In this document: positions 9,408-57,523 of the stretch, piece after piece | Layout of the letters: every line of letters starts with the position of its first letter | Numbering within the stretch: the first letter of the stretch is position 1 | NCBI GenBank assembly: GCA_020161835.1 | Contig: JAIUNL010000008.1 | Span: 84,552-148,551 of the forward strand | Reading direction: 5' to 3' | Source: Bacteroidota bacterium | GTDB taxonomy: Bacteria; Bacteroidota; JABWAT01 | Length of the DNA stretch: 64,000 bases | Program-made: the position numbers and the translations under genes | Notes under the pieces: generated by a model | The model's input: the letters and a program-made list of their open reading frames with translations, nothing else | Told to the model about the DNA's origin: nothing | Databases searched by the model: none

Positions 9408-12400
9408 TTGAATACTTCACTTCGCTTCCTTTTTTCCGGGATTTTGTTTTTGCTTTTTTCATCAGTCAATGGGCAAGATTTGTCTCAGTTTACTCATGAA
9501 GAATGGACAACCGATGACGGATTACCCCAAAATACAGTTCTTTCAGTTCAACAAACCAAAGATGGATATATTTGGCTTGCAACCTACGAGGGGTTGGTCA
9601 GATTCAACGGCACTGAGTTTAAAGTTTTTGATAAACGAAATCTTCCCGGGTTAACAAATAAGTCCATTCTTTCTCTGACTGAAAGTTCTGATTCCTGTTT
9701 ATGGATTGGGACACGGCTTGGAGTAAACCGGTATAAATCTGGTAAACTGCTTTCAGATTCTGCTGTATTGCAACTTAAAAATCAATTTGTAAGAGCAATC
9801 CATGAAGACCGCCAAAAAACGGTCTGGTTTGCAACTGAATCAGGTTTGGGTGCTTATTCTAAAGGTTTGTTGAAAATTTATTCAACGGAAGACGGACTCA
9901 TAAATCCGAATATTACTGCACTTGAAGAAGACCAGGAGGGACGACTTTGGGTTGGTACTTCAAACGGACTTCAATATTTCAAGGACGGCAAATTTTTTAC
10001 ACCGGTTGTAAAATCAAAACTTCCTAACACATTTATAAGATCACTTTTGGTTGATCGTGATAATGTAGTTTGGGTCGGAACCTCAAACGGTCTTGTAAAG
10101 GTGATCAACGGAATTATAAATTCGATCCCTGAACAACTCACACTTCCAAACCAAATTATTACCTCACTCATTGAGGATCAGACAGGTGCAATATGGATTG
10201 GAACTGAAGCAGGACTTGCCCGATGGAAGGATTGGGATTTATCAGTTTTTTCAGTCAAAGACGGACTTTCGAATAATAAGGTTAGAGCTCTTTTTCAGGA
10301 TATTGAGGGGACAATCTGGATTGGGACCAATGTTGGACTAAACAATCTGAGGCAGGGTAGATTTACAGTCATTACCTCTCAAAAAGGTCTTTCTGATGAT
10401 TTTGTGAGAACTGTTTATCAGGATAAAAATGAAACAATCTGGGTCGGAACCGGTGCCGGATTGAATGCTATTGGAAAAAATGGAATAAAAACCTACCCGG
10501 TTTCAAAAGGATTACCCGGCGAAGAAATCATTTCACTTGCAGGTCAGGATGACGGTGCTTTAATTGTTGGCACCGGAAATAATGGTTTTTCTGTGTTAAG
10601 AAATGGTGTCTTTAAAAATTATACAACCAATGACGGCCTTCTTTCGAATACCGTCAGAGCTATCTTACCTGAGTCTAATGGCAAGGTTTGGATTGGAACC
10701 AACCGTGGCCTTAACCTTTTTGACGGAACCGGTTTTACTAAGTTTAACTCAGATGAAGGGCTTTCCGGCAATATCATACTTTCACTTGCTAAAGATAAAT
10801 CTGACAGACTTTGGATTGGCACTGCCTCGGGGTTGAATTCTATGACCCCGGATGGTAAAATTTCAGTTTACAGGGATTCAAACGGAAATCTGCATTCAAA
10901 TGTATTTTGCATTTACCCTGATGCCGGAAATAACATTTGGGTTGGAACTGACAACGGTCTTTTGCTTTTCAGAAATGGTAAACTTGTTACCTTTACCATT
11001 CAGGATGGTTTGTACGATGATATCGCTTTTCAGATACTCGAAGATGGGCCTGGTAATCTTTGGATGAGTTGCAATAAGGGTATTTACGAAGTTAAGAAAC
11101 AGGATTTGCTTGACTATGCTGATGGCAAACTAATCAGAATAACCTGTAAAGTTTATGGTAAATCAGATGGATTGAAAACAAGTCAGTGCAACGGTTCTTC
11201 TCAACCTGCCGGTTGGAGGTTAAAAGACGGAAGGTTAACCTTCCCGACTGCAAAAGGAGTTGCTGTTATTTACCCGGAAGGTGGACAGTTAAAAAATCTC
11301 GTTCCGCCACCCGTCGTTATCGAAAAGGTTTTGTCGTTCAACGAACCTGTTCTTATTGAAGAAATGATTAACCTTGAACCGGGTAAAAAACGGTTTGAAT
11401 TCCATTTCGCAGCACTAACCTTTATCGAACCTGAAAAGGTTAAGTTCAAATATTTACTGGACGGTTTTGATGAATCCTGGGTTGATGCGGGTTCACGCAG
11501 GGTTGCCTATTATACCAACCTTCCGCCAGGTAATTATACTTTCAGGGTCATTGCCGCCAACAAAGATGGTGTCTGGAATTCTGAAGGTGCCAGTGTCTCT
11601 CTTTACCTTGAACCGTTTTACTATCAAACCTGGTGGTTCTGGACCTTACTTGGTGCCTTTTTGATTTCAATTCTGGCCGGACTCCATTTTTATAGAGTCA
11701 ATCAATTAAAATTTCACGAAAAACGGCTTCAGAATCAGGTTGCAGAAAGAACTAAAGCTATTTTTTCTGAAAAGGAAAAAGCTGAAACAGCTCTCAAAAC
11801 AACTGAGGCCGCTCAACAAAATCTAAAAATAAAGACTGAAGAACTGGAACAAGCCCTGGTTCAACTCAGAAAAACACAGTCTCAGCTTATTCAATCAGAG
11901 AAAATGATCTCGGTTGGTCAGCTTACTGCCGGTATTGCCCATGAATTAAATAATCCCATAAACTATATCTTTTCTGCAGTTCTTCCATTAAGGCGTGATG
12001 TCGAAAATTTGCTTGCTACCATTGAACATCTCGTTGATTCATTTCCTGGAAATAGGGAGCAGATCAATCAAATTTTGAAACTTCATGATTTTTATGAAGT
12101 AGGTGAAGAAATTCCGGTTCTTCTGGAAGGAATCGAAGATGGAGCCAGGCGTACTGATCTGATTGTAAGAAGCCTTAGAAATTTTTCCCGTCTTGATGAA
12201 GACATTCCTAAAAAAATTGATTTACTTCTAAATATTGAAAACACACTCTTTCTTCTCAGAAACCGAATTGGTGAACAGATCACGATTATCAGGGATTTCG
12301 AAGAAATACCCATGGTTGACTGCTATCCCGGACAGTTAAATCAGGTTTTCATGAACCTGCTTCAAAACTCACTTGATGCAATTTCTGGAAAGGGAACTCT

Positions 12401-12683
12401 TACTTTAAAATCATGGCGTGAGGGAAGTGAAGTTTTTCTTTCTTTTACAGATGACGGAGCAGGGATTCCGGAGGGTGTTCTTCCCAAAATATTTGATCCG
12501 TTCTTTTCTACGAAGGAAATTGGCCAGGGTGTTGGGCTGGGATTGTTTGTTTGTTACGGAATCATAAAAGCACATCAAGGCCAGATCACGGTTTCAAGTA
12601 CATTGAAAAAGGGAACAACGGTAACGGTTATGCTACCGGTGCATCCGCCACTTCAGTCAAGTTCGGAACCTTCGGAAGCATGA
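9408..12683 (+). CDS. sensor histidine kinase with a periplasmic two-component-regulator propeller and Y_Y_Y domain; no receiver domain
   Basis: 1091 aa. It has a signal peptide and repeated WIGT..GL propeller blades, then a Y_Y_Y region, a TM helix and a coiled coil. The kinase core has a HisKA H-box (GIAHELNNPINYI) and HATPase_c N/G boxes (DDGAGIPE, GQGVGLGL). Confidence 0.8.
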   Translation: MNTSLRFLFSGILFLLFSSVNGQDLSQFTHEEWTTDDGLPQNTVLSVQQTKDGYIWLATYEGLVRFNGTEFKVFDKRNLPGLTNKSILSLTESSDSCLWIGTRLGVNRYKSGKLLSDSAVLQLKNQFVRAIHEDRQKTVWFATESGLGAYSKGLLKIYSTEDGLINPNITALEEDQEGRLWVGTSNGLQYFKDGKFFTPVVKSKLPNTFIRSLLVDRDNVVWVGTSNGLVKVINGIINSIPEQLTLPNQIITSLIEDQTGAIWIGTEAGLARWKDWDLSVFSVKDGLSNNKVRALFQDIEGTIWIGTNVGLNNLRQGRFTVITSQKGLSDDFVRTVYQDKNETIWVGTGAGLNAIGKNGIKTYPVSKGLPGEEIISLAGQDDGALIVGTGNNGFSVLRNGVFKNYTTNDGLLSNTVRAILPESNGKVWIGTNRGLNLFDGTGFTKFNSDEGLSGNIILSLAKDKSDRLWIGTASGLNSMTPDGKISVYRDSNGNLHSNVFCIYPDAGNNIWVGTDNGLLLFRNGKLVTFTIQDGLYDDIAFQILEDGPGNLWMSCNKGIYEVKKQDLLDYADGKLIRITCKVYGKSDGLKTSQCNGSSQPAGWRLKDGRLTFPTAKGVAVIYPEGGQLKNLVPPPVVIEKVLSFNEPVLIEEMINLEPGKKRFEFHFAALTFIEPEKVKFKYLLDGFDESWVDAGSRRVAYYTNLPPGNYTFRVIAANKDGVWNSEGASVSLYLEPFYYQTWWFWTLLGAFLISILAGLHFYRVNQLKFHEKRLQNQVAERTKAIFSEKEKAETALKTTEAAQQNLKIKTEELEQALVQLRKTQSQLIQSEKMISVGQLTAGIAHELNNPINYIFSAVLPLRRDVENLLATIEHLVDSFPGNREQINQILKLHDFYEVGEEIPVLLEGIEDGARRTDLIVRSLRNFSRLDEDIPKKIDLLLNIENTLFLLRNRIGEQITIIRDFEEIPMVDCYPGQLNQVFMNLLQNSLDAISGKGTLTLKSWREGSEVFLSFTDDGAGIPEGVLPKIFDPFFSTKEIGQGVGLGLFVCYGIIKAHQGQITVSSTLKKGTTVTVMLPVHPPLQSSSEPSEA

Positions 12684-15600
12684 TTGTAAAGCAGGAGCCT
12701 TTGCCAGGTTCACTGGTTACTGTAATTTTCCCCCGATGCCGCTGAATGATCTGGTAGGAGATTGAAAGCCCTAACCCGGTACCTTTTCCAACTGCTTTGG
12801 TTGTGAAAAACGGATCAAAAAGTTTTGATATATTGCCTTCAGGTATCCCAATTCCATTATCAGTAACCGATAAAATGACAAATTCTTCAGTTTCTGAAGA
12901 GTTTACCTCAATTATTCCAGTCGTCTCTATTGCCTGAATGGCATTCATCAGCACATTCATCAGAACCTGATTGATCTGCCCCGGGAAGCCTGTTATCAAT
13001 GAAGTGTGGTTAAATGCTGTTTTGATTTCTATCCGACCAGCGATTTCTTTCTCAAGTAATTTGAGAGTAATTTCAAATCCTTCTGAAAGGTCAAACACTT
13101 TCATATCATTTTCATCAACACGGGAAAAAGTACGCAGACTCTTAACAATATCAGAGGTTCTGCTGGCACCGCTTTCCATACCGGCAAACAACTGATCAAT
13201 CTCTGTTTTTAATTCCTCAGGTGAAATTGAATTTTTAAGTTTACTTATTTCAGCAAGAATTTTGTCAGCTTCTTCACTTTCAGGATCTTTTGTCAAAATT
13301 GTTTCGAGACGCTGGTATAAAATCAAATACTTCAAAAGTTCACCAACATCCTCTTTTAAAGGATAGATACTGGATTGAATGAAATTGACCGGATTATTAA
13401 TCTCGTGTGCAATTCCGGCTACCAATGTACCCAAAGACGCCATTTTTTCTGACTGGATGAGTTGAGTCTGAGACTGTTTAAGCTGTTCATAACTTGTAGC
13501 TAGCTCAGAGGTTTTCTCAAAAACCAGCTTTTCAAGCAGGATTTTTTCTTTCTGGGTTTTGGTAATCCGCCATTGGATGAAAAGGAAAATACTAAGAAGT
13601 AAAACGATCAGATAAACCGATCTTGCCCACCAGGTTGAGTACCAGGCCGGCAGGATTATAAATCCGGTTGAGGCAGATTCTGAGATAAGGCCATAAACAT
13701 TTTTACTTCTGACCTGAAACTGGTACTCACCAGCCGGCAGATTGGTAAATTCCTTAACGGTTTCAGATGTCCATACACTCCACTGATTACTAAATCCCAA
13801 CAGCCGATATTGAAACTCAGTTTTGCCGTCGCCATCAAATGTTGCAGAGGAGAAATGAAATTGCAGATTTCGTTGTGACCAGGGCAAAACAGGCCAACCG
13901 CTTACAGTTGAATCTGCAAGTGCAACCAAACCACTGTCAGATTTTACTTCTTTGATGTGTGTAAAAAAACTGGCTGAAATATTTTTTTCAATTGCCGAAC
14001 TATAACTGAAAATCCCGTTATCACCGCCAAACCAGGTCACGCCAGGATCTGATTCGGCAATAGACCAAATTCCGCCCAATGGTAATCGGTTAAAGGGAGC
14101 CGCCTGATATCTGTAAGTTCCTGATTTAGAGAATGTTACCAGAAAAACCTGTGAAGAATTGGTAACCCAAAGTGTTGAATCATTTCTTTGTCTGATAATA
14201 CTTGAGGCATCAATCAGTTCATTGGGGAAACCGGGTACCAATGAAAAAGGGCTTTGGTCATCTGGTTTTTGATAAAGACCAGAAACAGTAGAAATTACAA
14301 GTTTTCTTCTGAATTCAGAAGTAAAATTTTCGGCAGGGGGTAACCCATCCGCTTTATCAAAATGAGTGACTTCAGGGTTAAGCCAATTATCCTTTTCAAA
14401 TGTGAACCTGTTAACACCTTCATAAAAACTTCCTGACCAGATTCGGCCAGATTCATCTTCATTTAGGGAATAAATGCCGATTTTACTGTTATTTACCCTT
14501 CCAATTTGCCTGATCTTGTTTTTTTCCATCTGATAAACAAAAAGTCCATCAGGTGAACCTGAAAAAAGTATGCCGGGAAAACGTTTTGAAACCAGTAAGG
14601 TTGATTGATTGGCACTTACGATTTTATTGAGTTTTCCGTTTACCAATTGGAAGAGGCCATCACTTGAGGCGATAAGAATAGTATTTCCTGTTTGTTCAAG
14701 ATGCCAAACTTCACCTGAAAGGTCAGGTACCTGCTTAAACTCCAGATCTGTTTCTGAATTTGCAGAAGATCCGTTTGGCTCACGAAGTTCTGCGGTAAAA
14801 AGTCCGAACATGGTGCCGGCGTAAAGAACATCACGGGTGACAAGAATAGAAAGGACAATTCCCTTTATGCCGTTATTTTTCGAATAGTAACCCCATGGGG
14901 ACGGATATTCCACACGTGAAATTCCTTGTTCACCAGTTACCCATAACCCGTTTTCATGGTCTGATGTAACAGAATAAACAATATTTGAAGGCAATCCCTG
15001 TTTTTCTGAAAGAACAAAAACAATATTTCCTTCCTGATCGATGATCAGAACACCACCACGAATGGTTGGAATTGCAATATTCCCATTGCTGAGCAAGACC
15101 GGCTGAATGTAAGATTTGAATTTTTTCAGATAAGCAGAGGCTGGAGAATCTAAAAAAACCGGAATGTTATTCTTGAACTCAAAAAGCCCTTTGCTTTCTG
15201 AAATAAAAATGGTTCTGCCAGTTTTTGTTTTAAATCCAAACGGAATTTCTTCTTTCATGAAAACGGAGTGATCACTTATTCGCTTAACAATTTCCCCGGT
15301 TACTTGTAATAATCCAACTTCGTGTTCAAGAAGAAAGAGCGTATTTTCAACAGTAAAAAGGTTAGAAAAAACCTTTTTTTGGGGTTTGATTACCGTAATT
15401 GTTGAATAATCATACACGTATAACGCTTTGGCTGTCAGGAAGTAAATCCGGTTATCAAAACTTATTGTTTTCCAGACTTCATTAAATGAGCGGGCAGAAT
15501 CAGGAAGCAGAGAAAGAAGACTATGAAAAGAAAGTTTTCCATTTTTATCTGTTTCGAGAAAACCCAGATCACTTGTTCCTCCAACATAGACCTGCCTGTC

Positions 15601-15873
15601 ACTGCCAATTGCGAGTGATCTGACTACGCCATTTTGGGGTGTATCAATAAATGTCCAGTTTTTCCCGTCAAACTCAAGCACACCGCCACGGTTATTGCCA
15701 AAATACATCATGCCGTTCGGAGCCTGAACCGAGCAATAGGTTTGAGGATCAGCCTTATAATCTGAAGGACGGAAAATATGGATAAAAGGGGAGGAGAAGA
15801 CCGGATGAAATCCGGAAAGCAGGAATAAAATCAGAAACAATCTGGCTTTTTTAAGCGTTCGGATAATGATCAT
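12628..15873 (-). CDS. sensor histidine kinase with a periplasmic propeller and Y_Y_Y domain; paralog of 9408-12683
   Basis: 1081 aa with the same architecture as its neighbour. H-box [13 protein letters not shown]; G-boxes TDNGIGIPE and [10 protein letters not shown]. The 3' end overlaps the convergent paralog by 56 nt. Confidence 0.8.
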
Positions 15874-47286: not shown

Positions 47287-47826
47287 ATGGACTACATGAA
47301 CGGTCGGTTGTTACCGTACAAAGATAAATTCCCGAAATTACATCGAACAGTATTTGTTACAGAAGGTTGTTACATCATTGGCGATGTTGAAATAGGTGCT
47401 GGTTCCAGTGTTTGGTTTGGTTCTGTCATTCGTGGTGATGTTCACCATATCAGGATCGGGGAACGTACAAATGTTCAGGATGGAACCATCATCCACGTTA
47501 CGCATGATGCATACCCAACCCTTATTGGCAACGATGTGACTCTGGGACATGGTGTCATGCTTCATGGCTGTACAATTCATGATACAGCTTTGATCGGAAT
47601 GAGAGCTACCATTCTTGACCAGGCCGTTATCGGAAAAAATTCACTGATTGCAGCCGGAACCCTTATCCGCGAAAGATTTGTCGTACCCGAAGGCGTTCTT
47701 GTAGCAGGCCTTCCCGGTAAAATCATCCGTGACCTGACCGATGAAGAAATTAAAAACCTGCACCAATCGAGTCTGAACTATCAGAACTATGTCAAAACCT
47801 ATCTGGATATGAAAGAGGAACGATAA
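47287..47826 (+). CDS. gamma-carbonic-anhydrase family hexapeptide-repeat protein
   Basis: 179 aa with left-handed beta-helix hexapeptide repeats and the His ligands (HHIRIG, HGC). Confidence 0.8.
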   Translation: MDYMNGRLLPYKDKFPKLHRTVFVTEGCYIIGDVEIGAGSSVWFGSVIRGDVHHIRIGERTNVQDGTIIHVTHDAYPTLIGNDVTLGHGVMLHGCTIHDTALIGMRATILDQAVIGKNSLIAAGTLIRERFVVPEGVLVAGLPGKIIRDLTDEEIKNLHQSSLNYQNYVKTYLDMKEER

Positions 47827-51114: not shown

Positions 51115-51450
51115 ATGAGCATAAAAGTTAGTCAAGTGGGTCATATTACCGTAATGGAACTTAACGGTAAACTTATGGGCGGAGACGAAACCAGAGAAGT
51201 ACGCGATGAAGTTGAAAAACAGGTAAAGGCTGGGAATACCAAATTTGTTTTCGATCTTGGAAACATTAAATGGATGAACAGTTCAGGCCTTGGTGCTATC
51301 GTTAGCTGTCATAACGTAGTAAAAGAAGCTGGCGGTGCTCTCAAACTTGCAAGAGTGGAACAAAAGATTGAATCGTTGCTGGTTGTTACCCACCTGATTA
51401 AAGTCTTTGAATGCCACAAAACTGTTGATGCCGCAATAGCTACATTTTGA
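51115..51450 (+). CDS. STAS-domain anti-sigma-factor antagonist (SpoIIAA/RsbV-like)
   Basis: 111 aa with the conserved phospho-Ser context (NIKWMNSSGLGAIV). Confidence 0.75.
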   Translation: MSIKVSQVGHITVMELNGKLMGGDETREVRDEVEKQVKAGNTKFVFDLGNIKWMNSSGLGAIVSCHNVVKEAGGALKLARVEQKIESLLVVTHLIKVFECHKTVDAAIATF

Positions 51451-51458
51451 TTTTAAAA

Positions 51459-51490
51459 AAGCCCTGATTTCCATCGGGGCTTTTTTTTAT
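51459..51490. terminator. strong bidirectional rho-independent terminator
   Basis: An A5 run, then a hairpin AAGCCCTGA-tttccat-CGGGGCTT, then T8. It serves the convergent STAS gene (+) and the radical-SAM/GT operon (-). Confidence 0.7.
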
Positions 51491-51516: not shown

Positions 51517-52497
51517 CTACCTGAAAAATTTGAGTTTAGTAGAAATTTTCTGACTAATAAACTTAGTAAAGGAATATTTCACCTTTGAAGGTAAAGACCT
51601 CATTCCATATGCATTCATTGACATTGCAAATGAGGGTTCAAAGTAGCAATTCACAGTACAACCCTGACAAAAGTTATATTTCCCCTGCATACTTTCAGCG
51701 GCTTTTACAGTCTGTGATTGGCGTTGGTCATAAAGATCACCATTGAGCTGTATTTTCTGGTTATTAAAATGGTAACAAGGCAGAAGCAGCTCATTTCGGG
51801 CACTGATTACTACAGTGGTGCTCACCGCCTTGCAAACCGGATCGGCGATTTGATTTCCACCATTTCTTCTTAGATCTATAAAGGCGGGATTCAAATAGGT
51901 TCCTGGTGTATTTGTATAACTCTCAAGAATATCTAAAACTTCAGGCGTAAGTTGCCCGCCACGGTCACCGTAACTGAAAAGAGGGTTGATGATCAGGATC
52001 ACCCCATGTTTGCGGGCCAGGTCAATCATGGCTGGTAAATGATGCACATTCTCATTTCTTACAGTAAAATGCAAATCTGGTCGTTCGCCTAAAGACAAAG
52101 CCAGCTCAATACTTGCAAAAACTGAGTCGTAACATTTTACACCACGGTGAAGATCATGTTCTTCCTTAACTGGCGAATCAAGTGAAAAATGAAGAAGGTC
52201 AATTAACCCCTTTATAGATTCTGCTTTTTTGGGATATAAAAGTCCGTTTGACGTGATGGTTGTAAGAAACCCCTTTGATTTCGCCATTCTGAGCAAGACA
52301 TCAATTTGAGGATGAAGAAGGGGTTCACCACCCGTGAAGTCCAATACTTTAACTCCCAGCCTCTTGAGATCTGTCAGATTCTTTTCAGCATCAGTGAGAT
52401 CAATAAAGGGTGATTTGAAGTCCTCCCAGATGTCACAGAAATCACAGCTGGCATTACACTTGTTGGTAACATAATAGTTAGCGAGAACGGGGTTCAA
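51517..52497 (-). CDS. radical SAM enzyme with a possible auxiliary-cluster (twitch/SPASM-like) C-terminus
   Basis: 326 aa with a CNASCDFC (CxxxCxxC) cluster near the N-terminus and a GGEPLL SAM motif. The C-terminus has CQGCTVNC. It is the last gene of the minus-strand operon. Confidence 0.75.
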   Translation of the reverse strand: MNPVLANYYVTNKCNASCDFCDIWEDFKSPFIDLTDAEKNLTDLKRLGVKVLDFTGGEPLLHPQIDVLLRMAKSKGFLTTITSNGLLYPKKAESIKGLIDLLHFSLDSPVKEEHDLHRGVKCYDSVFASIELALSLGERPDLHFTVRNENVHHLPAMIDLARKHGVILIINPLFSYGDRGGQLTPEVLDILESYTNTPGTYLNPAFIDLRRNGGNQIADPVCKAVSTTVVISARNELLLPCYHFNNQKIQLNGDLYDQRQSQTVKAAESMQGKYNFCQGCTVNCYFEPSFAMSMNAYGMRSLPSKVKYSFTKFISQKISTKLKFFR

Positions 52498-53599
52498 AGT
52501 ATTCTCTGCCTTTCCATTTAACTTTCCTGCTAAACAGGGTCATGATGGGAATTGATAAATTAATAAGCGGGTAAACCAGTTCATAAAGCACAAATGCCTT
52601 TGGTTTGAATATTATTTCCGTCTGGCGTGCGAATTGCCGGATGAGGAAGAAATCTGCTGATAGTTTAACAACTGCTGAAATAATGGTCAGCCACGGATTC
52701 AATATCCAGCCAAAAATGACAGAAAGGTGCAGACCGACCGCCGAAATTACCAGCAACCAACTTCTTACAGGACTTTTAACTCCACCCAGAATCCAACGTT
52801 TTCGTTGTAAAACTAATTCCGGCCACGATTGATTTGAACGTGTAATATGTATATTCTGAGGAGTTGATGAGAAAATAACTGCCTTGCCAGAATTGAGAAA
52901 TAACCTGAAAAGTGCAAAATCTTCAGTGATAGTAAAGGGCAGACTCCTGAAACCACCCAATTCCAGATAATCCTTTTTAAGAAAAGCCATATTATTGCCA
53001 ATGGCCGTAAACGGGTGACCTGAGTGATGACTACCAGAGGCAATTGCCATCATATAAAACCAGTCAGTTTCCTGAACTGCACCTAAAAATCCGGTTGAAT
53101 CTGAAACAGTTGGACCGCATACCATTGCAAGGCTGGCATTTTCTTTAAATCTGTCTTCAAGAAACGTGATCCAATCCGGGTTCAAAACCATATCAGCATC
53201 AGTTGTGACTATAATCGAAAAACTGGAATTCTGAATGCCAGTATCAAGTGCAAAAGGTTTCCCTGATTCATCTTTCATTCTTGAAACTTTAACCCATTCG
53301 AAATCGATTGTGAACTGGTTCAAAAGGAGTTCAGATCCATCATCTGAATGGTCGTCAACAAAAATGACTTCAAACCCACAGTTTGGGCGTTTCATTGCCT
53401 CAAGGTTTAAAATCAGATTTTTGAGATTTGAGATTTCATTTCTTACCGGAATAATAAGAGAAATTCCATCGACAGACTTTTTTTCTCTTTCAACAACTCG
53501 TGATACTGCTTGTTTTTTCAATCCGGAAAGAATTCTAAGGCTTTCAAGAAGATAAATTGCAGTCAGAACCCAGAAAATTATTTCAAGGACGGAAGACAT
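52478..53599 (-). CDS. membrane glycosyltransferase family 2 (processive-type D, DxD, TED, QxxRW signature)
   Basis: 373 aa with an N-terminal TM helix followed by the GT2 catalytic domain (FVDDHSDDGS, TTDADMV, TITEDFALF, QRKRWILGG). The C-terminal part contains 3-4 TM helices. Confidence 0.75.
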   Translation of the reverse strand: MSSVLEIIFWVLTAIYLLESLRILSGLKKQAVSRVVEREKKSVDGISLIIPVRNEISNLKNLILNLEAMKRPNCGFEVIFVDDHSDDGSELLLNQFTIDFEWVKVSRMKDESGKPFALDTGIQNSSFSIIVTTDADMVLNPDWITFLEDRFKENASLAMVCGPTVSDSTGFLGAVQETDWFYMMAIASGSHHSGHPFTAIGNNMAFLKKDYLELGGFRSLPFTITEDFALFRLFLNSGKAVIFSSTPQNIHITRSNQSWPELVLQRKRWILGGVKSPVRSWLLVISAVGLHLSVIFGWILNPWLTIISAVVKLSADFFLIRQFARQTEIIFKPKAFVLYELVYPLINLSIPIMTLFSRKVKWKGREYFEPRSR

Positions 53600-54234
53600 G
53601 ATAACTCAAAATTATGTTCGGTACAAATAAGTTTTACCCGTAAAAGTGATTCTTTAAGGCGATCCTTGTATTCCGGTTTATCATGAAACACAAGTATAAC
53701 TCCATTCTTCAGCCATTCTTTTTTCCGTCTGCTAATCTCATCAGGTGAAAAATCAGGCAGCCAGTCTTTAAACATGAAATTCCAAAAAATAAGATGAAAT
53801 CCATTTTGAGTTAACCTTTTATTCAACCCAGGTTTCCATGCTCCGTAGGGTGGTCTGAACCAGGACTGGAATTCAGGTAAATGCATGACCTGAAGCGAAT
53901 CAAGTTGAGTAAGTTCTTCCTGAATCTCAAAATCTGAAAGCCTTGAATATTTCCTATGAGTATAACCATGGAAGGCAGCGAACTGAGAACCAAGCTGACT
54001 AAAAACAGTTGGACGTTGTTTAATTTTTTCGCCAGGCCAGAAATGAGTTGCCTGAATCTGGTTTTCATTCATCCAGTGAAGCAGGTTCGGTGTATTGTCA
54101 TTTGGACCATCATCAATAGTCAGGTAAATAACCTTCCGGTTACTCTGACCTTTAAAATAAAAACCCGGAGTGTGAAACCGGTAAAGAAGCAATGTCAGCC
54201 AGTTCATAACCATCAGTAGCGAACACCTTTCCAA
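53578..54234 (-). CDS. NodB-homology polysaccharide deacetylase, apparently cytoplasmic
   Basis: 218 aa. VIYLTIDDGPNDNTPNLLHWMNENQIQATHF matches NodB motif 1 (TFDDGP), with H..H and later motifs. There is no convincing signal peptide. Confidence 0.75.
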   Translation of the reverse strand: MERCSLLMVMNWLTLLLYRFHTPGFYFKGQSNRKVIYLTIDDGPNDNTPNLLHWMNENQIQATHFWPGEKIKQRPTVFSQLGSQFAAFHGYTHRKYSRLSDFEIQEELTQLDSLQVMHLPEFQSWFRPPYGAWKPGLNKRLTQNGFHLIFWNFMFKDWLPDFSPDEISRRKKEWLKNGVILVFHDKPEYKDRLKESLLRVKLICTEHNFELSCLPSLK

Positions 54235-55340
54235 TCAAATCGGGAAAATGTCCCCATAAAACCCGTAAAAACCAGGTAGGGGATTTGAATCCATCCAAAC
54301 CAGAGAACCGAAAACGGATTAATTTTCTGATTAAGGAAACTGTTTGATGTAGAAAGAAAAAATGCATCACCGGCAAATTTCAGAAGTAAGATGAAACCTA
54401 TAAAACCCCAGGTCACCAGATTAAAGAAAGCAAAAACAGGCATGACTAAAAATAAAACGTGGATGAACCAGAATAAAGAGAGAAAAACCTTGTAACGGCC
54501 TGACTGGTAGTGAAAACCCTTACTTGCCCATCTTTTGCGCTGATTGAACAATGATGTCCAGTCTGGTTGGGCATGGGTAAGAACCAAAGCTTCTCTGGTC
54601 GGCAGATATTGAATCCCGTCTTTAAACATCGAATGAATTTTGTGCATGAGAAGTTCATCGTCCCCACTGATCAGGTGATCAATACCTGAAAACCCATCCA
54701 CAGCAGAAAAAGCTGACTTCCTGATCCAGAGATTTGCTCCATTGATTGTAGATGGCTGGTTGTGCCCACTTGAACCGCCTGCGACAACCATTAATCCTGC
54801 AAATTCAAGATGTTGCCAGGAGGATAAAAACGATCCCTTACGAAAAAATTCCACGGGTCCTGCAATCAATTGTGAAGAGTTTGAAACCGCCTGGGTAAAA
54901 ACGGAAACCCAGGTTCGGGGAACCAGACAATCTGCATCGGTAAAGGCAATCCAGTCTCCCTTTGCTACCGAAAGTGCGCACTGAATCGCACGTTTTTTAG
55001 GACTTTTTATTCCTGAATAGTGTGGAAAGTTTTGGGTCTGGATGGGTATTATGATTGGATTCTGAATTGAAAGCTCTGTAATCAGTTTAAACGTCTGATC
55101 AGTTGAAAAGTCATCTACAACAATAATTTCGGTGATTAATTTTTTGTTTTCGGGTACGAGCAAAGAATTCAGGCAGGTAAGGATGTTAGATTCTTCATTT
55201 CTTGCTGCAATTATAACCGAAACAGAAGGAGGGGGGAATTTATTAGTTTTGAATTCAGTATCAAGTTTTTTAAAGCCGGTAAGGTACCATAACAGTGCAG
55301 AGAGGTAAAAAATGCAGGCACCAACCAGTACAACTTCCAT
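54213..55340 (-). CDS. membrane glycosyltransferase family 2 (D, DxD, QxxRW)
   Basis: 375 aa with an N-terminal TM helix, then the GT2 catalytic domain (VVDDFSTDQT, FTDADCLVP, SGDDELLMHKI, NQRKRWASKG) and 4 C-terminal TM helices. Confidence 0.75.
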   Translation of the reverse strand: MEVVLVGACIFYLSALLWYLTGFKKLDTEFKTNKFPPPSVSVIIAARNEESNILTCLNSLLVPENKKLITEIIVVDDFSTDQTFKLITELSIQNPIIIPIQTQNFPHYSGIKSPKKRAIQCALSVAKGDWIAFTDADCLVPRTWVSVFTQAVSNSSQLIAGPVEFFRKGSFLSSWQHLEFAGLMVVAGGSSGHNQPSTINGANLWIRKSAFSAVDGFSGIDHLISGDDELLMHKIHSMFKDGIQYLPTREALVLTHAQPDWTSLFNQRKRWASKGFHYQSGRYKVFLSLFWFIHVLFLVMPVFAFFNLVTWGFIGFILLLKFAGDAFFLSTSNSFLNQKINPFSVLWFGWIQIPYLVFTGFMGTFSRFDWKGVRY

Positions 55341-56404
55341 TATTCAACTGATTTTGAAACCGGTACGGGGTTAGTTTTAAGCTTTATGGAATGCCGTTTT
55401 CTGATTCGCTGAATTTTCATGTATCTGAACTGTTTTGCAAAGGAGGATGGCTTTATTTCCATGGCAAGAATGATCAGAATTCCGATTACCGATGGGGTTA
55501 ACCTGTTGATAATAAAAAGAAGAAGTGCGCTGAAAAGGGCAACTTCGGCACTAATTCCAAATTTAGTAAAGAAATATACAGATGAAATTTCACGGATTCC
55601 CAAATCACCGAAAGTAAGTCCGGAAAGAACTGATCTGACGAGCAGGGTAGCCGTTGCCCCCAAATAGCCGATTGCAATAGGCACATTACCAAAAGCAAGA
55701 ATGATCAGATAAAATTGAGTAATGTAAGTAAAATATTTAAGAACGTTTACGATAATGAGATAAAGGTTGTCACCACTGTTTAATCTTTTCGCAGCAAGGG
55801 TCGCACCTTCAATGTGAATTTTACCTAGAAATTTAAATTTAGGTATCAATTTCAGAAAAGGTTTTGGAGTAGCGCAAAAAACGATACCGGCAATTCCAAA
55901 AATCAGAAAGAAAATACCGATACCCATGATCAGTTCCTGTTCAACTGCACCTGGTATATATTTAAAGGCAATTACAATAAAGGCAATTGAACCGGCAATG
56001 CATGAAATAAACAGAAGGGAAATTTTCTCTATAAAATGGAGAGCAACGAGTGAAGCTTTCGGGAATGCAGACATGTTAAGTAACCGTCCTGCATAATCTC
56101 CAAGTGGAGAAAGGGTAACAGTATCAAGGGCAAGCCCTGAAAGCATAGAATAAAAGGTAACCCGTTTTCTTATTCTGGAATCAATAAATCTGACTACATA
56201 ATCCCATTTTAGCCAACTGAAGAAAACATTTGGGATAACAAGCAATCCGGCAAGAATAATGTATGATGAATCTGCACGATTTCCCTGACGAAATACTTCG
56301 TTCCAGTCAATAACAAAACAGACTGAAACTAATCCGGCAAGGGTAAAGAGTTTCAGTCCCCAGATGAGCTGATTAAAATATTTTTGGAACAGGTTTTTCA
56401 ACAA
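55340..56404 (-). CDS. lysylphosphatidylglycerol-synthase-TM-domain (UPF0104, MprF-flippase-like) membrane protein
   Basis: 354 aa with about 8 TM helices. The family-like N-terminal helix plus loop pattern is present. There is no C-terminal aminoacyl-transferase domain. Confidence 0.6.
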   Translation of the reverse strand: MLKNLFQKYFNQLIWGLKLFTLAGLVSVCFVIDWNEVFRQGNRADSSYIILAGLLVIPNVFFSWLKWDYVVRFIDSRIRKRVTFYSMLSGLALDTVTLSPLGDYAGRLLNMSAFPKASLVALHFIEKISLLFISCIAGSIAFIVIAFKYIPGAVEQELIMGIGIFFLIFGIAGIVFCATPKPFLKLIPKFKFLGKIHIEGATLAAKRLNSGDNLYLIIVNVLKYFTYITQFYLIILAFGNVPIAIGYLGATATLLVRSVLSGLTFGDLGIREISSVYFFTKFGISAEVALFSALLLFIINRLTPSVIGILIILAMEIKPSSFAKQFRYMKIQRIRKRHSIKLKTNPVPVSKSVE

Positions 56405-56431
56405 ATAATTATTTTCCGAGAAAAGAGCTTG

Positions 56432-57463
56432 TTAACTTTTCCACTTTGGTCTAAGAACCTGCAAAAATACGGATAAAAATGGAAGTAGAAAATGATAGGG
56501 TAAGGCAAAAAGAGATATCCGGGTGATGGAAGACACAAATAAACCCAGTTCGGACAATAAACGTCTACTTTGGGCTGTAATAAAAATTACACTTGCAAAA
56601 ATAAAAGAAGAACCTATTACCACTGATTGAAATGAATCCAGGTAAATAGAACCCATTAAAAATACGATTGATGCTGGAAACCAAAGGTCATAAAAAGCTA
56701 GCAAAATAAGGATTTTAACGGGGTATTTACTGCCCGCCTTGTAGTGACGTGCCTTTTGGTTGATAAGATCCTTCCAACTCTTTTTTGTTCCGGTAGTTGC
56801 AGCATTTAATTTGAGCAACGCCACTTTCGGGTTATTTGAAAGCAATTTTTGGAAAAGCAGATCATCGTCACCCGATTTGATCATGGCGTGTGACTCAAGA
56901 TACTCCTTTTGGAATAAATTCTTTTTGAATCCCCAATTCCGTCCGACAGACATGTATGGACAACTAAATTGATAAAAGTAAGTATATTTTATGGCTGTGA
57001 ATAAAGCATCCATCCATTGCAGTTCCTGTAAAAACCCTGAATTCGGTTCAAAATCGGGCAAACTATAACCGGCAATAACCTCAGATTGATTGAATTGTGA
57101 CCGGTACTCGGAGAAGAAAGAAACTGGAAGGATACAATCGGCATCAGTAAAAACAAGATTCTGATTAGCTGCATGGGAAATGCCAAGAAAAACGGCCCAT
57201 TTTTTGGGTGATTCTGGCCACTCAGTTTCAGTTATAATGATTTTTCGAATTGGGAGGATGGATGAAAACCTGTCAGCAATCTGTTCAGATTGATCTGTAC
57301 ACCGGTCAAGAATAATCAGGATTTCGTCATCCTTACCGGGTTTAATGGACTCTAAGAGTACAGGAAGATTATTTTCCTCGTTGTGAACGCAAACAATAAG
57401 AGAAATGGGTTGATTCATTAGACAATTGACAAAGTATAAGTAAAAGCGTATTTTAGTTGCCAT
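56432..57463 (-). CDS. glycosyltransferase family 2; the start may alternatively be Met16 at 57418
   Basis: 343 aa with the GT2 motifs ISLIVCVHNEENNL, DRCTDQS, FTDADCILP, SGDDDLLFQKL. The QxxRW position is degenerate (QKARHY). C-terminal TM helices are present. Confidence 0.7.
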   Translation of the reverse strand: MATKIRFYLYFVNCLMNQPISLIVCVHNEENNLPVLLESIKPGKDDEILIILDRCTDQSEQIADRFSSILPIRKIIITETEWPESPKKWAVFLGISHAANQNLVFTDADCILPVSFFSEYRSQFNQSEVIAGYSLPDFEPNSGFLQELQWMDALFTAIKYTYFYQFSCPYMSVGRNWGFKKNLFQKEYLESHAMIKSGDDDLLFQKLLSNNPKVALLKLNAATTGTKKSWKDLINQKARHYKAGSKYPVKILILLAFYDLWFPASIVFLMGSIYLDSFQSVVIGSSFIFASVIFITAQSRRLLSELGLFVSSITRISLFALPYHFLLPFLSVFLQVLRPKWKS

Positions 57464-57465
57464 AA

Positions 57466-57498
57466 AACCTGGTGAGGTGTCATCAGGTTTTTTTTATT
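57466..57498 (+). terminator. hairpin plus T-tract in the greA 5' leader (attenuator or leader terminator candidate)
   Basis: A stem AACCTGGTGA / TCATCAGGTT (10 bp with one G-U, loop GGTG) is followed by T8-A-T5. It ends about 25 nt before the greA ATG. Confidence 0.4.
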
Positions 57499-57523
57499 TT
57501 TAAAAAGGCGCATCAGAGGAAAC

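Follow-up and report, generated by a model that had tools for sequence, protein, structure and literature searches.

A six-gene operon in an uncultured Bacteroidota bacterium possibly devoted to a hexosamine-containing membrane glycolipid

The operon and its predicted products

The ORF list of the 64,000-nt stretch of DNA analysed here (hereafter the window) places six ORFs on the minus strand between positions 51517 and 57463. From 5' to 3', the operon carries the genes for a family-2 glycosyltransferase (GT2a), an MprF-type flippase-like protein, a second glycosyltransferase (GT2b), a CE4 deacetylase, a third glycosyltransferase (GT2c) and a radical SAM enzyme. The features of the locus are, in ascending coordinates:

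51455-51486, no strand: terminator-like hairpin of the bidirectional intrinsic type (hairpin scan and sequence reading)
51517-52497, minus: radical SAM enzyme (Pfam Radical_SAM, 81.1 bits)
52478-53599, minus: GT2c, membrane GT2/GT21-type glycosyltransferase (Pfam GT2 67.4 bits, GT21 49.2 bits)
53578-54234 (likely start 54213), minus: CE4 (NodB-homology) deacetylase (Pfam Polysacc_deac_1, 71.5 bits)
54213-55340, minus: GT2b, membrane GT2/GT21-type glycosyltransferase (Pfam GT2 71.6 bits, GT21 28.9 bits)
55340-56404, minus: flippase-like membrane protein, MprF transmembrane (UPF0104 / PplT) family (Pfam LPG_synthase_TM, TIGR00374)
56432-57463 (likely start 57418), minus: GT2a, family-2 glycosyltransferase (Pfam Glycos_transf_2, 50.5 bits)
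57419-57523, minus: divergent intergenic region shared with greA, presumed operon promoter region (from sequence; its limits follow from the corrected start of GT2a)

A 27-nt gap separates GT2a from the flippase-like gene, which overlaps GT2b by 1 nt; the longest ORFs overlap by 22 nt at both the GT2b/deacetylase and deacetylase/GT2c junctions, and by 20 nt at the GT2c/radical SAM junction. The gene lengths called in relatives (328 aa for GT2a, 211 aa for the deacetylase) make 57418 the most likely start of GT2a and 54213 that of the deacetylase, the latter leaving GT2b and the deacetylase gene with a stop/start overlap of 1 nt. The hairpin (14 pairs, 5 of them G-C, with an A run and a T run on its flanks) separates the radical SAM gene from a convergent STAS gene, and a 12-pair inverted repeat lies at 57464-57491, inside the greA/GT2a intergenic region. 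Both the ORFs and the hairpin confirmed what an earlier note on this DNA had described, namely a six-gene minus-strand operon with junctions that overlap or are 27 nt or less, closing at a bidirectional terminator. From the overlaps and the single terminator, we infer that the six genes are co-transcribed. Pfam matches also agree with the domains that the note had assigned to all six products, and the motifs it had quoted for GT2b, GT2c, the deacetylase (YLTIDDGPNDNTP) and the radical SAM enzyme (CNASCDFC and CQGCTVNC) were all found in the sequence.

GT2a bears DAD and GDDD motifs, three hydrophobic helices at the C-terminus and none at the N-terminus (hydropathy), and a conserved QKxRH where QxxRW is expected; Q221, K222, R224 and H225 are invariant across six orthologues. 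GT2b (FTDADC for DAD, SGDDELL for GDDE, and QRKRW) and GT2c (TTDADM for DAD, TITEDF for TED, and QRKRW) score 28.9 and 49.2 bits, respectively, against Pfam Glyco_transf_21, the ceramide glucosyltransferase family, both above the gathering cut-off of 21.7. No other member of the cluster is as widely distributed as GT2b, which has 2222 50%-identity representatives at E<=1e-30 and orthologues in Ekhidna (L085) and L090. When the GT2b family profile was compared with solved structures, ceramide glucosyltransferase gave the single near-full-length collinear match (profile positions 4-313), and other solved GT2s matched only partially. No GT2 of the operon reaches the curated NCBIfam cut-off for any characterised enzyme: PgaC_IcaA, the best match of GT2b (59.3 bits) and of GT2c (87.9 bits), has a cut-off of 422, and HpnI, also among the best of GT2c (51.5 bits), one of 310.

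The flippase-like protein exceeds the cut-offs of LPG_synthase_TM (45.1 vs 33.4 bits, Pfam) and TIGR00374 (44.6 vs 43.2 bits), shows at least 7 hydrophobic helices by hydropathy and has no aminoacyl-PG synthase domain; a word-indexed search of 5.8 billion proteins returned only 7 at E<=1e-8. The deacetylase keeps all five CE4 motifs (DD, HGYTH, RPPY, DW and LVFH) and has neither a signal peptide nor a transmembrane helix or other hydrophobic segment in its hydropathy profile. Since the motifs are intact and a hydrophobic segment is absent, the enzyme is likely cytoplasmic, as had been proposed for it as a NodB-type deacetylase. Its PDB sequence matches are peptidoglycan and chitin deacetylases, and NodB is one of its best NCBIfam matches (60.3 bits vs a cut-off of 240).

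The radical SAM enzyme, which is predicted to be cytoplasmic, possesses the N-terminal CX3CX2C motif (C14, C18 and C21, in CNASCDFC) and five conserved C-terminal cysteines (C222, C241, C277, C280 and C284) that include CQGCTVNC. It has no transmembrane helix and, in agreement with the earlier note, no B12 domain detectable by Pfam. Its closest solved fold is BlsE (cytosylglucuronate decarboxylase, PDB 7vob), an enzyme acting on a pyranose sugar, albeit the sequence match is limited to the radical SAM core (profile positions 13-161) and the BlsE model TIGR04466 scores 45.8 bits vs a cut-off of 400.

Conservation of the gene order and linkage of the radical SAM gene

The identical six-gene order is shared by five other genomes or contigs, namely L004, L087, L005, L002 and L089 (L003 is a second contig of the L002 lineage), among which GT2c orthologues are as low as 32-34% identical. 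The order is conserved across deep divergence, and its recurrence indicates that the six genes are not a chance juxtaposition. In most genomes that have the radical SAM gene, however, it is far from the other genes: at 77 of 81 genome loci, the 10 kb around it contain neither a GT2 gene nor a flippase-like or deacetylase gene.

These stand-alone loci raise the possibility, which we consider serious though not probable, that the first five genes form a glycoconjugate unit, and that an unrelated, strongly conserved radical SAM gene became the last cistron through genome rearrangement in some lineages. The stand-alone orthologues in Rhodothermales and Hymenobacter are 52-59% identical to the enzyme of the window, and those of Rhodothermales have no conserved neighbour gene. 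A hexapeptide-repeat gene follows the radical SAM gene in 43 loci, probably mostly of Hymenobacter, and also lies 3.7 kb from it in the window, suggesting that the neighbourhood of the radical SAM gene here is the ancestral one. Its product is 69-90% identical within the clade, comparable to GreA, STAS and the hexapeptide protein, which are the best conserved of the flanking genes, whereas the other five genes evolve fast (GT2s and deacetylase just 32-77% identical); such slow evolution fits a separately constrained function. Searching with the deacetylase gave named matches from Fluviicola, Crocinitomicaceae and Ekhidna and none from Hymenobacter or Rhodothermales, and, in the stretch covered, no radical SAM gene of this kind accompanies the reduced modules of Ekhidna (L085), L090, L127, L165 and L136.

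Nevertheless, several observations favour a radical SAM gene that belongs to the unit. Its start overlaps the stop of GT2c, the overlap being 20 nt in the window and 4 nt in both L002 and L089. The order flippase-like, GT2b, deacetylase, GT2c, radical SAM recurs in two metagenome contigs that branch deeply (L125 and L131), and the GT2c-radical SAM adjacency in a third (L159), although the cluster proteins of these contigs are only 24-36% identical to those of the window; this recurrence strengthens the view in the earlier note that the radical SAM gene is part of the unit. The flanking genes of the window have no match in L125 or L159, and BshC alone has one in L131. The radical SAM enzymes of the three contigs are 42-51% identical to that of the window and keep all eight cysteines. 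In a simple neighbour-joining tree, whose root depends on just two distant radical SAM paralogues, the linked enzymes branch below the unlinked ones of Rhodothermales and Cytophagales (193/200 bootstraps), so that the linkage to the cluster looks ancestral. Besides, in related clusters the flippase-like gene is preceded by a second radical SAM/SPASM gene, suggesting that radical chemistry recurs in this cluster family. On the whole, the evidence for the radical SAM gene belonging to the unit is mixed.

A candidate pathway, its rivals and known systems

We tentatively propose, at a probability of roughly 45%, that the operon is for the biosynthesis of a hexosamine-containing membrane glycolipid, following the logic of the HexSDF and GpgSDF operons with membrane glycosyltransferases of the GT2/GT21 type. 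At the cytoplasmic face of the inner membrane, GT2b and GT2c (GT21-like) and the divergent GT2a would glycosylate a membrane lipid (diacylglycerol, ceramide or phosphatidylglycerol as candidates) from nucleotide donors, adding at least one N-acetyl-hexosamine. The soluble CE4 deacetylase would then strip the N-acetyl group to leave a free amine, and the soluble radical SAM enzyme would act on the sugar head group by hydrogen abstraction, remodelling it through, for instance, decarboxylation, ring contraction, epimerisation or dehydration. Finally, the flippase-like protein would carry the finished lipid to the outer leaflet. The substrates, the order of steps and the action of the radical SAM enzyme on the operon product are our conjecture. 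A lipid product finds some support in the match of GT2b to ceramide glucosyltransferase and in the flippase-like protein scoring above MprF-type cut-offs. Demonstrated substrates of the flippase-like family are aminoacyl-PG lipids, and its members occur in two demonstrated amino-glycolipid operons (PMC10128005, PMC12713373).

A surface polysaccharide could be meant instead. If the GT2s were processive enzymes of the PgaC/NodC/cellulose-synthase type, the product would be a partly de-N-acetylated, PNAG- or chitin-oligomer-like glycan exported to the cell surface. The PgaC_IcaA alignments to GT2b and GT2c span most of their length, TED and QRKRW are motifs of processive beta-glycan synthases, the GT2b profile matches BcsA around the QxxRW region, and related clusters include a Wzi-like outer-membrane capsule-assembly protein (L159) and DUF1207 proteins (L125). 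NodC/NodB and PgaC/PgaB likewise combine a membrane GT2 bearing D,D,D,QxxRW with a CE4 deacetylase, and NodB is a small cytoplasmic enzyme of about the size of the deacetylase here. Yet we judge this reading unlikely. The earlier note had named confident exopolysaccharide scores as evidence against its own proposal, and the GT2s and the deacetylase fall far under the curated cut-offs (PgaC 422, NodC 550, NodB 240). D,D,D,QxxRW also occurs in the non-processive ceramide glucosyltransferase family, and the deacetylase has no signal peptide, whereas PgaB and IcaB are exported. As the note had stated, neither a NodA-like acyltransferase nor a gene for polymer export is part of the cluster; PgaA/BcsC or another export porin, NodA, NodIJ and Wzx/Wzy are absent both from it and from the 46 window ORFs annotated (by Pfam scan or by match to Pfam-annotated syntenic relatives). 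The operon also lacks PgaD, and has instead a radical SAM enzyme and a flippase-like protein of the lipid type; MprF-type flippase-like proteins are not known to act in polymer export.

Quite improbable is a set of flipped polyprenyl-phosphate-linked sugars, one of them a de-acetylated amino sugar, serving as periplasmic donors for decoration of LPS, protein or an envelope polymer (ArnC/ArnD/ArnEF/ArnT or archaeal AglD logic): GT2b and GT2c have QxxRW and match GT21 rather than the GtrB/DPMS/ArnC type, the ArnC model PRK10714 reaches 31 bits vs a cut-off of 529 over the N-terminal GT-A half only, no GT-C or ArnT-like transferase is found in the cluster or among the annotated window ORFs, and three paralogous GT2s fit single polyprenyl-phosphate-sugar synthases poorly. 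The Arn pathway does join a GT2 to a flippase and a CE4-type enzyme (deacetylase or deformylase), and sequence matching against the PDB brings up ArnC structures for both GT2b and GT2c. On Fluviicola-type contigs, moreover, the gene immediately upstream of ~30% identical deacetylase homologues encodes a TMEM260-like protein of 1283-1368 aa; such proteins are probably GT-C enzymes, a class that uses polyprenyl-phosphate sugars. In Euryarchaeota, GT-A glycosyltransferase domains are commonly fused to this MprF-type flippase-like domain (bioRxiv 10.1101/2022.03.11.483950).

The proposed glycolipid pathway has close counterparts, and the statement in the earlier note that no described pathway fits the operon is no longer current, at least for its core. 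HexSDF of Clostridioides difficile was experimentally demonstrated in 2023 to be an operon for aminohexosyl-hexosyl-diradylglycerol (PMC10128005). By description, its components are alike: a glycosyltransferase, an enzyme of the polysaccharide-deacetylase family and an MprF-like protein that has the flippase domain and lacks the synthase domain; an N-acetyl-hexosamine lipid intermediate is de-acetylated to a cationic amino-glycolipid. Unlike the operon here, HexSDF has one transferase (HexS, annotated as MGDG-synthase-type and not a membrane GT2/GT21) and no radical SAM enzyme, and HexD is modelled as extracellular. GpgSDF of Pseudomonas aeruginosa, demonstrated in 2025 for glucosaminyl-phosphatidylglycerol (PMC12713373), comprises three genes for a synthase, a deacetylase and a UPF0104 flippase; the predicted location of the former two is the cytoplasm, and flipping is proposed to follow once the product has been made, the topology we propose here. 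However, GpgS is a soluble GT4 and GpgD a COG3233 deacetylase, additional glycosyltransferases and a radical SAM enzyme are absent, and its acceptor is PG, as demonstrated by lipidomics.

For the role of the radical SAM enzyme, the best functional analogy is that of the hopanoid genes HpnI/HpnK/HpnJ/HpnL/HpnB (bacteriohopanetetrol glucosamine and cyclitol ether), whose activities equal those proposed here: a GT2/GT21-type lipid GlcNAc transferase, a de-N-acetylase, an amino-sugar-remodelling radical SAM enzyme, a UPF0104 flippase-like protein and an extra GT2. HpnK is YdjC-type and HpnJ B12-dependent; the operon has a CE4 deacetylase and a non-B12 radical SAM enzyme in their place. No squalene-hopene cyclase, as the earlier note had said, or other hpn gene is among the annotated window ORFs, and the HpnL model found nothing in the operon at E<=0.01. 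The hopanoid parallel drawn in that note is even closer than claimed, since hopanoid loci include HpnL, which is flippase-like and belongs to this family too (bioRxiv 10.1101/2025.07.29.667474). Overall, the interpretation in the earlier note is partly supported.

The sugar-adding, de-acetylating and flipping steps thus belong to an already described kind of pathway, and the radical SAM step alone is without a characterised counterpart. The operon is a GT2/GT21-based variant of the synthase-deacetylase-flippase type, with three GT2 genes instead of one and an additional gene for a radical SAM enzyme.

The operon and its genomic setting

Six consecutive minus-strand ORFs were called at the positions that the earlier note had assigned to a single operon. 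Pfam matched the domain family named there for every one of them, including a radical SAM (rSAM) protein without a B12 domain, and each of the motifs quoted was found in the six ORFs.

Features of the operon (window coordinates, strand, description)
56432-57463 (-): GT2a, family-2 glycosyltransferase; Pfam Glycos_transf_2
55340-56404 (-): flippase-like protein, MprF-type; Pfam LPG_synthase_TM
54213-55340 (-): GT2b, family-2 glycosyltransferase; Pfam Glycos_transf_2 and Glyco_transf_21
53578-54234 (-): deacetylase; Pfam Polysacc_deac_1
52478-53599 (-): GT2c, family-2 glycosyltransferase; Pfam Glycos_transf_2 and Glyco_transf_21
51517-52497 (-): rSAM; Pfam Radical_SAM, without B12 domain
51455-51486: hairpin with A and T runs on its flanks, between the operon end and the convergent STAS gene; closes the unit

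The tight junctions and the terminator described previously were recovered as well: neighbouring genes either leave a gap of 27 nt or share 1 to 22 nt, with the deacetylase gene overlapping the GT2 genes on both sides, and the hairpin follows the last gene. Going by the lengths of these genes in relatives, the probable starts are 57418 for GT2a (328 aa) and 54213 for the deacetylase (211 aa), which would make the latter overlap the GT2b stop by 1 nt. The short divergent greA-operon region contains, at 57464-57491, a 12-pair inverted repeat (AAAACCTGGTGA...TCATCAGGTTTT) directly upstream of the first in-frame GT2a ATG. This repeat may serve as an operator; should translation really begin at the ATG at 57418, it could instead form a leader structure. 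No Rfam family or tRNA was found in the window, and a riboswitch on the operon was thus not detectable.

The window annotation covers 46 ORFs, 36 of which were scanned with Pfam and 10, flanking the cluster, matched to Pfam-annotated genes in syntenic relatives; seventeen ORFs, mostly small, lie outside it. Apart from the operon, the genes are mostly of the housekeeping kind (ThrRS, PheRS, UvrB, MlaEFD and, by synteny, BshC), accompanied by those for a pair of large sensor kinases, a subtilase carrying a T9SS sorting tail, a UbiA prenyltransferase and a YegS-like lipid kinase. Two convergent genes, 9408-12683 (+) and 12628-15873 (-), encode Reg_prop/Y_Y_Y beta-propeller histidine kinases of ~1085 aa each, and their 3' ends overlap by ~55 nt according to the longest-ORF coordinates.

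Conservation of the cluster and the place of the radical SAM gene

Five further genomes or contigs (L004, L087, L005, L002 and L089; L003 is a second contig from the lineage of L002) carry the complete set with its order unchanged and its junctions likewise overlapping. The six-gene loci share a common synteny, namely BshC, a tricorn-like gene, GreA, the cluster, and then STAS and MiaE. Across this clade, identity to the window copy ranges from 69 to 90% for the rSAM, from 44 to 90% for the flippase-like protein, and from 32 to 77% for GT2a, GT2b, GT2c and the deacetylase; the range of the rSAM resembles those of GreA, STAS and the hexapeptide-repeat protein encoded nearby.

A reduced module adjoins GreA in Ekhidna (L085) and in locus L090. 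It comprises flippase-like and GT2b-like genes, a small ORF and a SpoIIE gene, followed by a deacetylase gene in L085 and by a deacetylase-like fragment and a GT2c-like gene in L090. The SpoIIE/PP2C phosphatase and the ORF of 84-85 aa occupy 6817-8004 in L085 and 7302-8567 in L090. In the window, L002, L003 and L087, the STAS anti-sigma-antagonist gene (window 51115-51450, +) runs convergently towards the end of the operon. With STAS at the operon end and SpoIIE inside the reduced module, partner-switching parts go with the module in two lineages.

More distant relatives were sought in metagenomes. The flippase-like protein yielded zero confirmed relatives, and the search patterns were saturated by chance matches; it was a poor anchor, because a word-indexed search with its alignment gave only 7 matches, and the GT2b anchor worked. 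The GT2b family is large (2222 representatives at 50% identity, E<=1e-30) and includes the double-length proteins P0253 (674 aa, GT2b part C-terminal) and P0384 (708 aa, GT2b part N-terminal), in which GT2b may be fused to a membrane partner; one cluster bears the JGI name peptide/nickel permease.

Accessory genes vary among the related clusters (SAM methyltransferase, Wzi-like protein, DUF1207, DUF3108 and CehA/McbA-type metallohydrolase). A second, different radical SAM/SPASM gene lies directly upstream of the flippase-like gene in L102, L120, L125, L133, L135 and L159 (7024-8034 in L125; 3962-4969 and 11101-12168 in L159), the place held by GT2a in the window. Its best NCBIfam match was a tungsten-cofactor oxidoreductase maturase, at 120 bits (cut-off 380). 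A 547-aa metallohydrolase of the CehA/McbA family (PHP-type), for which no Pfam match was obtained, follows GT2c in L136 (12794-14437), taking the place of the rSAM, and follows the rSAM in L159 (15126-16769). The two copies are 37% identical, and the protein looks like a further recurrent accessory member of the cluster family.

Whether the rSAM belongs to the unit, as the earlier note assumed, received a divided answer. In an orthologue scan with one genome per species, >590 genomes were positive, and the best 80 of these loci (52-59% identity; Rhodothermales, Hymenobacter, Rufibacter and Fulvivirga) were kept. Neither tblastn nor profile HMMs found GT2, flippase-like or deacetylase genes within 10 kb of the rSAM in 77 of the 81 genome loci, and no conserved informative neighbour accompanies the stand-alone rSAM in Hymenobacter or Rhodothermales, except for a hexapeptide-repeat (LbH) gene. 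These data make it a serious possibility, albeit short of a probable one, that the rSAM is a passenger with a separate function of its own. The hexapeptide-repeat gene is found ~144 nt after the stand-alone rSAM in 43 loci (within L036-L083), probably mostly of Hymenobacter. The same gene lies at 47287-47826 (+) in the window, 3.7 kb from the rSAM, and is 86-97% identical across the clade; the proximity of the two looks like residual ancestral synteny.

Two results argue against a passenger. Firstly, the metagenome scan anchored on the GT2b family recovered the order flippase-GT2b-deacetylase-GT2c-rSAM, unchanged, in L125 and L131, and GT2c-rSAM in L159; the rSAMs of these loci are 42-51% identical to that of the window, the other proteins 24-36%, and all eight rSAM cysteines are retained. 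Secondly, in a neighbour-joining tree (200 bootstraps) rooted on two distant paralogues, the unlinked rSAMs of Rhodothermales and Cytophagales form one clade (169/200) that groups with the window clade (193/200), and the linked rSAMs of L125/L131 and L159 branch below both. Subject to the limits of the simple method and the distant-paralogue root, the simplest reading would be an ancestral linkage of the rSAM to GT2c with a single later loss.

Protein families and characterised counterparts

By a simple hydropathy scan of the six proteins, the flippase-like one has at least seven membrane segments and the GT2s have helices at the N- and/or C-terminus; no membrane segment was predicted in the deacetylase or the rSAM, and the deacetylase has no hydrophobic N-terminus. 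The deacetylase retains all five motifs of the CE4 (NodB-homology) type (DD, HGYTH, RPPY, DW and LVFH; Polysacc_deac_1 71.5 bits). The flippase-like protein (354 aa; LPG_synthase_TM 45.1 bits, cut-off 33.4) carries no further domain, including that of aminoacyl-PG synthase. With 44.6 bits against TIGR00374, the flippase-like family (cut-off 43.2), it passed the only NCBIfam cut-off exceeded by any cluster protein, and none reached a curated equivalog cut-off; the models for PgaC/IcaA, NodB/NodC, HpnI/HpnL, ArnC and BlsE all failed to claim a member.

Bit scores of cluster proteins against family models (cut-off in brackets)
GT2c: PgaC_IcaA (TIGR03937) 87.9 (422.3); HpnI (TIGR03472) 51.5 (310); NodC 22.5 (550); ArnC (PRK10714) 31 (529)
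GT2b: PgaC_IcaA (TIGR03937) 59.3 (422.3); NodC 17.4 (550); ArnC (PRK10714) 15.4 (529)
Deacetylase: NodB 60.3 (240)
rSAM: PTO1314 family 92.5 (306); BlsE (TIGR04466) 45.8 (400)

Both GT2b and GT2c exceed the gathering cut-off of Pfam Glyco_transf_21, the ceramide glucosyltransferase family. Structures of ceramide glucosyltransferases align with the GT2b profile over positions 4-313, BcsA matches at positions 200-335 only, and the remaining GT2 structures match the N-terminal half only. For GT2c, sequence matches in the PDB are confined to the N-terminal GT-A half, which is generic; the profile of the flippase-like protein found no counterpart among solved structures. The three paralogues of the window gave a poor AlphaFold model of GT2c (mean pLDDT 57, transmembrane part <50), which was excluded from the fold search.

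The rSAM has a CX3CX2C motif and conserved C-terminal cysteines on a SPASM/twitch-like fold, as in the auxiliary-cluster superfamily, and scores far below the cut-off for BlsE, a cytosylglucuronate decarboxylase. It is a recurrent cluster partner with a BlsE-like fold, and the part of the operon without a characterised counterpart. A viperin/defence reading (PADLOC pVip models 77 and 73 bits; NF038283 65.4 bits, cut-off 180) was rejected because the match, residues 4-114 only, is limited to the N-terminal core.

Two characterised amino-glycolipid operons have a synthase, a deacetylase and a flippase (S-D-F). HexSDF of C. difficile combines a glycosyltransferase with a polysaccharide deacetylase and an MprF-like flippase; aminohexosyl-hexosyl-diradylglycerol requires it, and the N-acetylated intermediate builds up without HexD (PMC10128005). 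In P. aeruginosa, GpgSDF consists of a GT4 together with a COG3233 deacetylase and a UPF0104 flippase; its products, GlcNAc-PG and GlcN-PG, are formed upon expression in E. coli as well (PMC12713373). The present operon likewise contains an MprF-type flippase-domain protein devoid of the aminoacyl-PG synthase domain, and a deacetylase with intact active-site motifs adjoining glycosyltransferase genes. The transferases differ, being of the GT2/GT21 type here, GT4 in GpgS and the MGDG-synthase type in HexS. On sequence grounds, the operon is a putative, uncharacterised GT2/GT21-based variant of the S-D-F kind and belongs to no characterised system. The proposal that no described pathway fits the arrangement must be given up for the core, whose logic is that of HexSDF and GpgSDF.

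The hopanoid parallel drawn in the earlier note is closer than stated in one respect, since HpnL, of unknown function, belongs to the same flippase-like family (bioRxiv 10.1101/2025.07.29.667474). It weakens in others: GT2c is far from the HpnI cut-off, GT2b did not match HpnI at all, and the flippase-like protein did not match HpnL (TIGR03476) at E<=0.01. As had been noted, neither a squalene-hopene cyclase nor a polymer-export gene occurs among the 46 annotated window ORFs, and no other hpn gene was found among the 36 Pfam-scanned and 10 synteny-matched ones. Contraction of lipid-linked sugars has been proposed for the known radical SAMs HpnJ and, in archaea, Cds (PMC13459092). The operon also differs from the Nod-factor core, with NodC and NodB scores well short of the cut-offs and no NodA-like acyltransferase gene in the cluster, and from the Arn pathway, as ArnC matches are confined to the N-terminal half and no GT-C (ArnT-like) gene is present in the cluster.

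A putative amino-glycolipid pathway and its meaning

The analysis shows how the genes are ordered, that this order is deeply conserved, and which families, motifs and predicted topology the proteins have; we infer all of the chemistry in what we regard as their best explanation (probability roughly 0.45). The GT21-like GT2s would glycosylate a membrane lipid at the cytoplasmic face, adding at least one N-acetyl-hexosamine (HexNAc); the soluble CE4 deacetylase would remove the N-acetyl group; the soluble rSAM would modify the sugar; and the flippase-like protein would transfer the resulting lipid to the outer leaflet.

A PNAG- or chitin-oligomer-like glycan is an unlikely product. The similarity of the GT2s to PgaC and the Wzi-like and DUF1207 genes of related clusters speak for it, but the deacetylase is predicted to be cytoplasmic and not exported as in PgaABCD/IcaADBC, the flippase-like protein is of lipid type, and export genes were found neither in the cluster nor among the 46 annotated window ORFs. 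The confident PNAG assignment with partner genes that the earlier note had raised against itself did not materialise, as the PgaC/IcaA scores are far below the cut-off and no porin-like (PgaA-type) gene was seen in the cluster or among the annotated window ORFs. That the products are polyprenyl-phosphate-linked amino-sugar donors, as in Arn or AglD systems, is more doubtful still, as the GT2s are of the QxxRW/GT21 type and the cluster lacks a GT-C gene, even though deacetylase homologues in Flavobacteriales are paired with a TMEM260-like protein. On Fluviicola-type contigs, such homologues (~30% identical, 205 aa) lie immediately downstream of a TMEM260_N/DUF8416 protein of 1283-1368 aa (L084 3891-8618; L086 4137-8618). 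We take these proteins to be possible GT-C enzymes, a hint that some members of the deacetylase family act on polyprenyl-phosphate-linked sugars.

Returning to the amino-glycolipid pathway, cationic amino-glycolipids from S-D-F operons alter membrane charge, and the C. difficile lipid reportedly mediates resistance to daptomycin and bacitracin. To our knowledge, only two S-D-F systems have been characterised, none of them in Bacteroidota and none built on GT2/GT21 enzymes. The operon and its relatives would carry this kind of pathway into another phylum and another enzyme family, and would provide the first functional context for an rSAM family that has no known role and occurs in >590 representative genomes (one per species). 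We know of no worked-out mechanism for either HpnJ or Cds; if the rSAM acts on the head group, the operon would be a tractable bacterial system in which to study how radical chemistry remodels lipid-linked sugars. It is attractive, though improbable on present evidence, to speculate that the operon and the L125/L131/L159 family represent a new class of bacterial membrane lipid, in which a non-B12 rSAM rebuilds the lipid-linked amino-sugar head group, yielding for instance a carbocyclic aminocyclitol or a decarboxylated pentosamine. If this is the case, it would be the third independent origin of rSAM-remodelled sugar head groups, beside the cyclitol ethers of HpnJ and the calditol of Cds, and the stand-alone rSAMs of Rhodothermales and Hymenobacter would mark the same chemistry across much of Bacteroidota.
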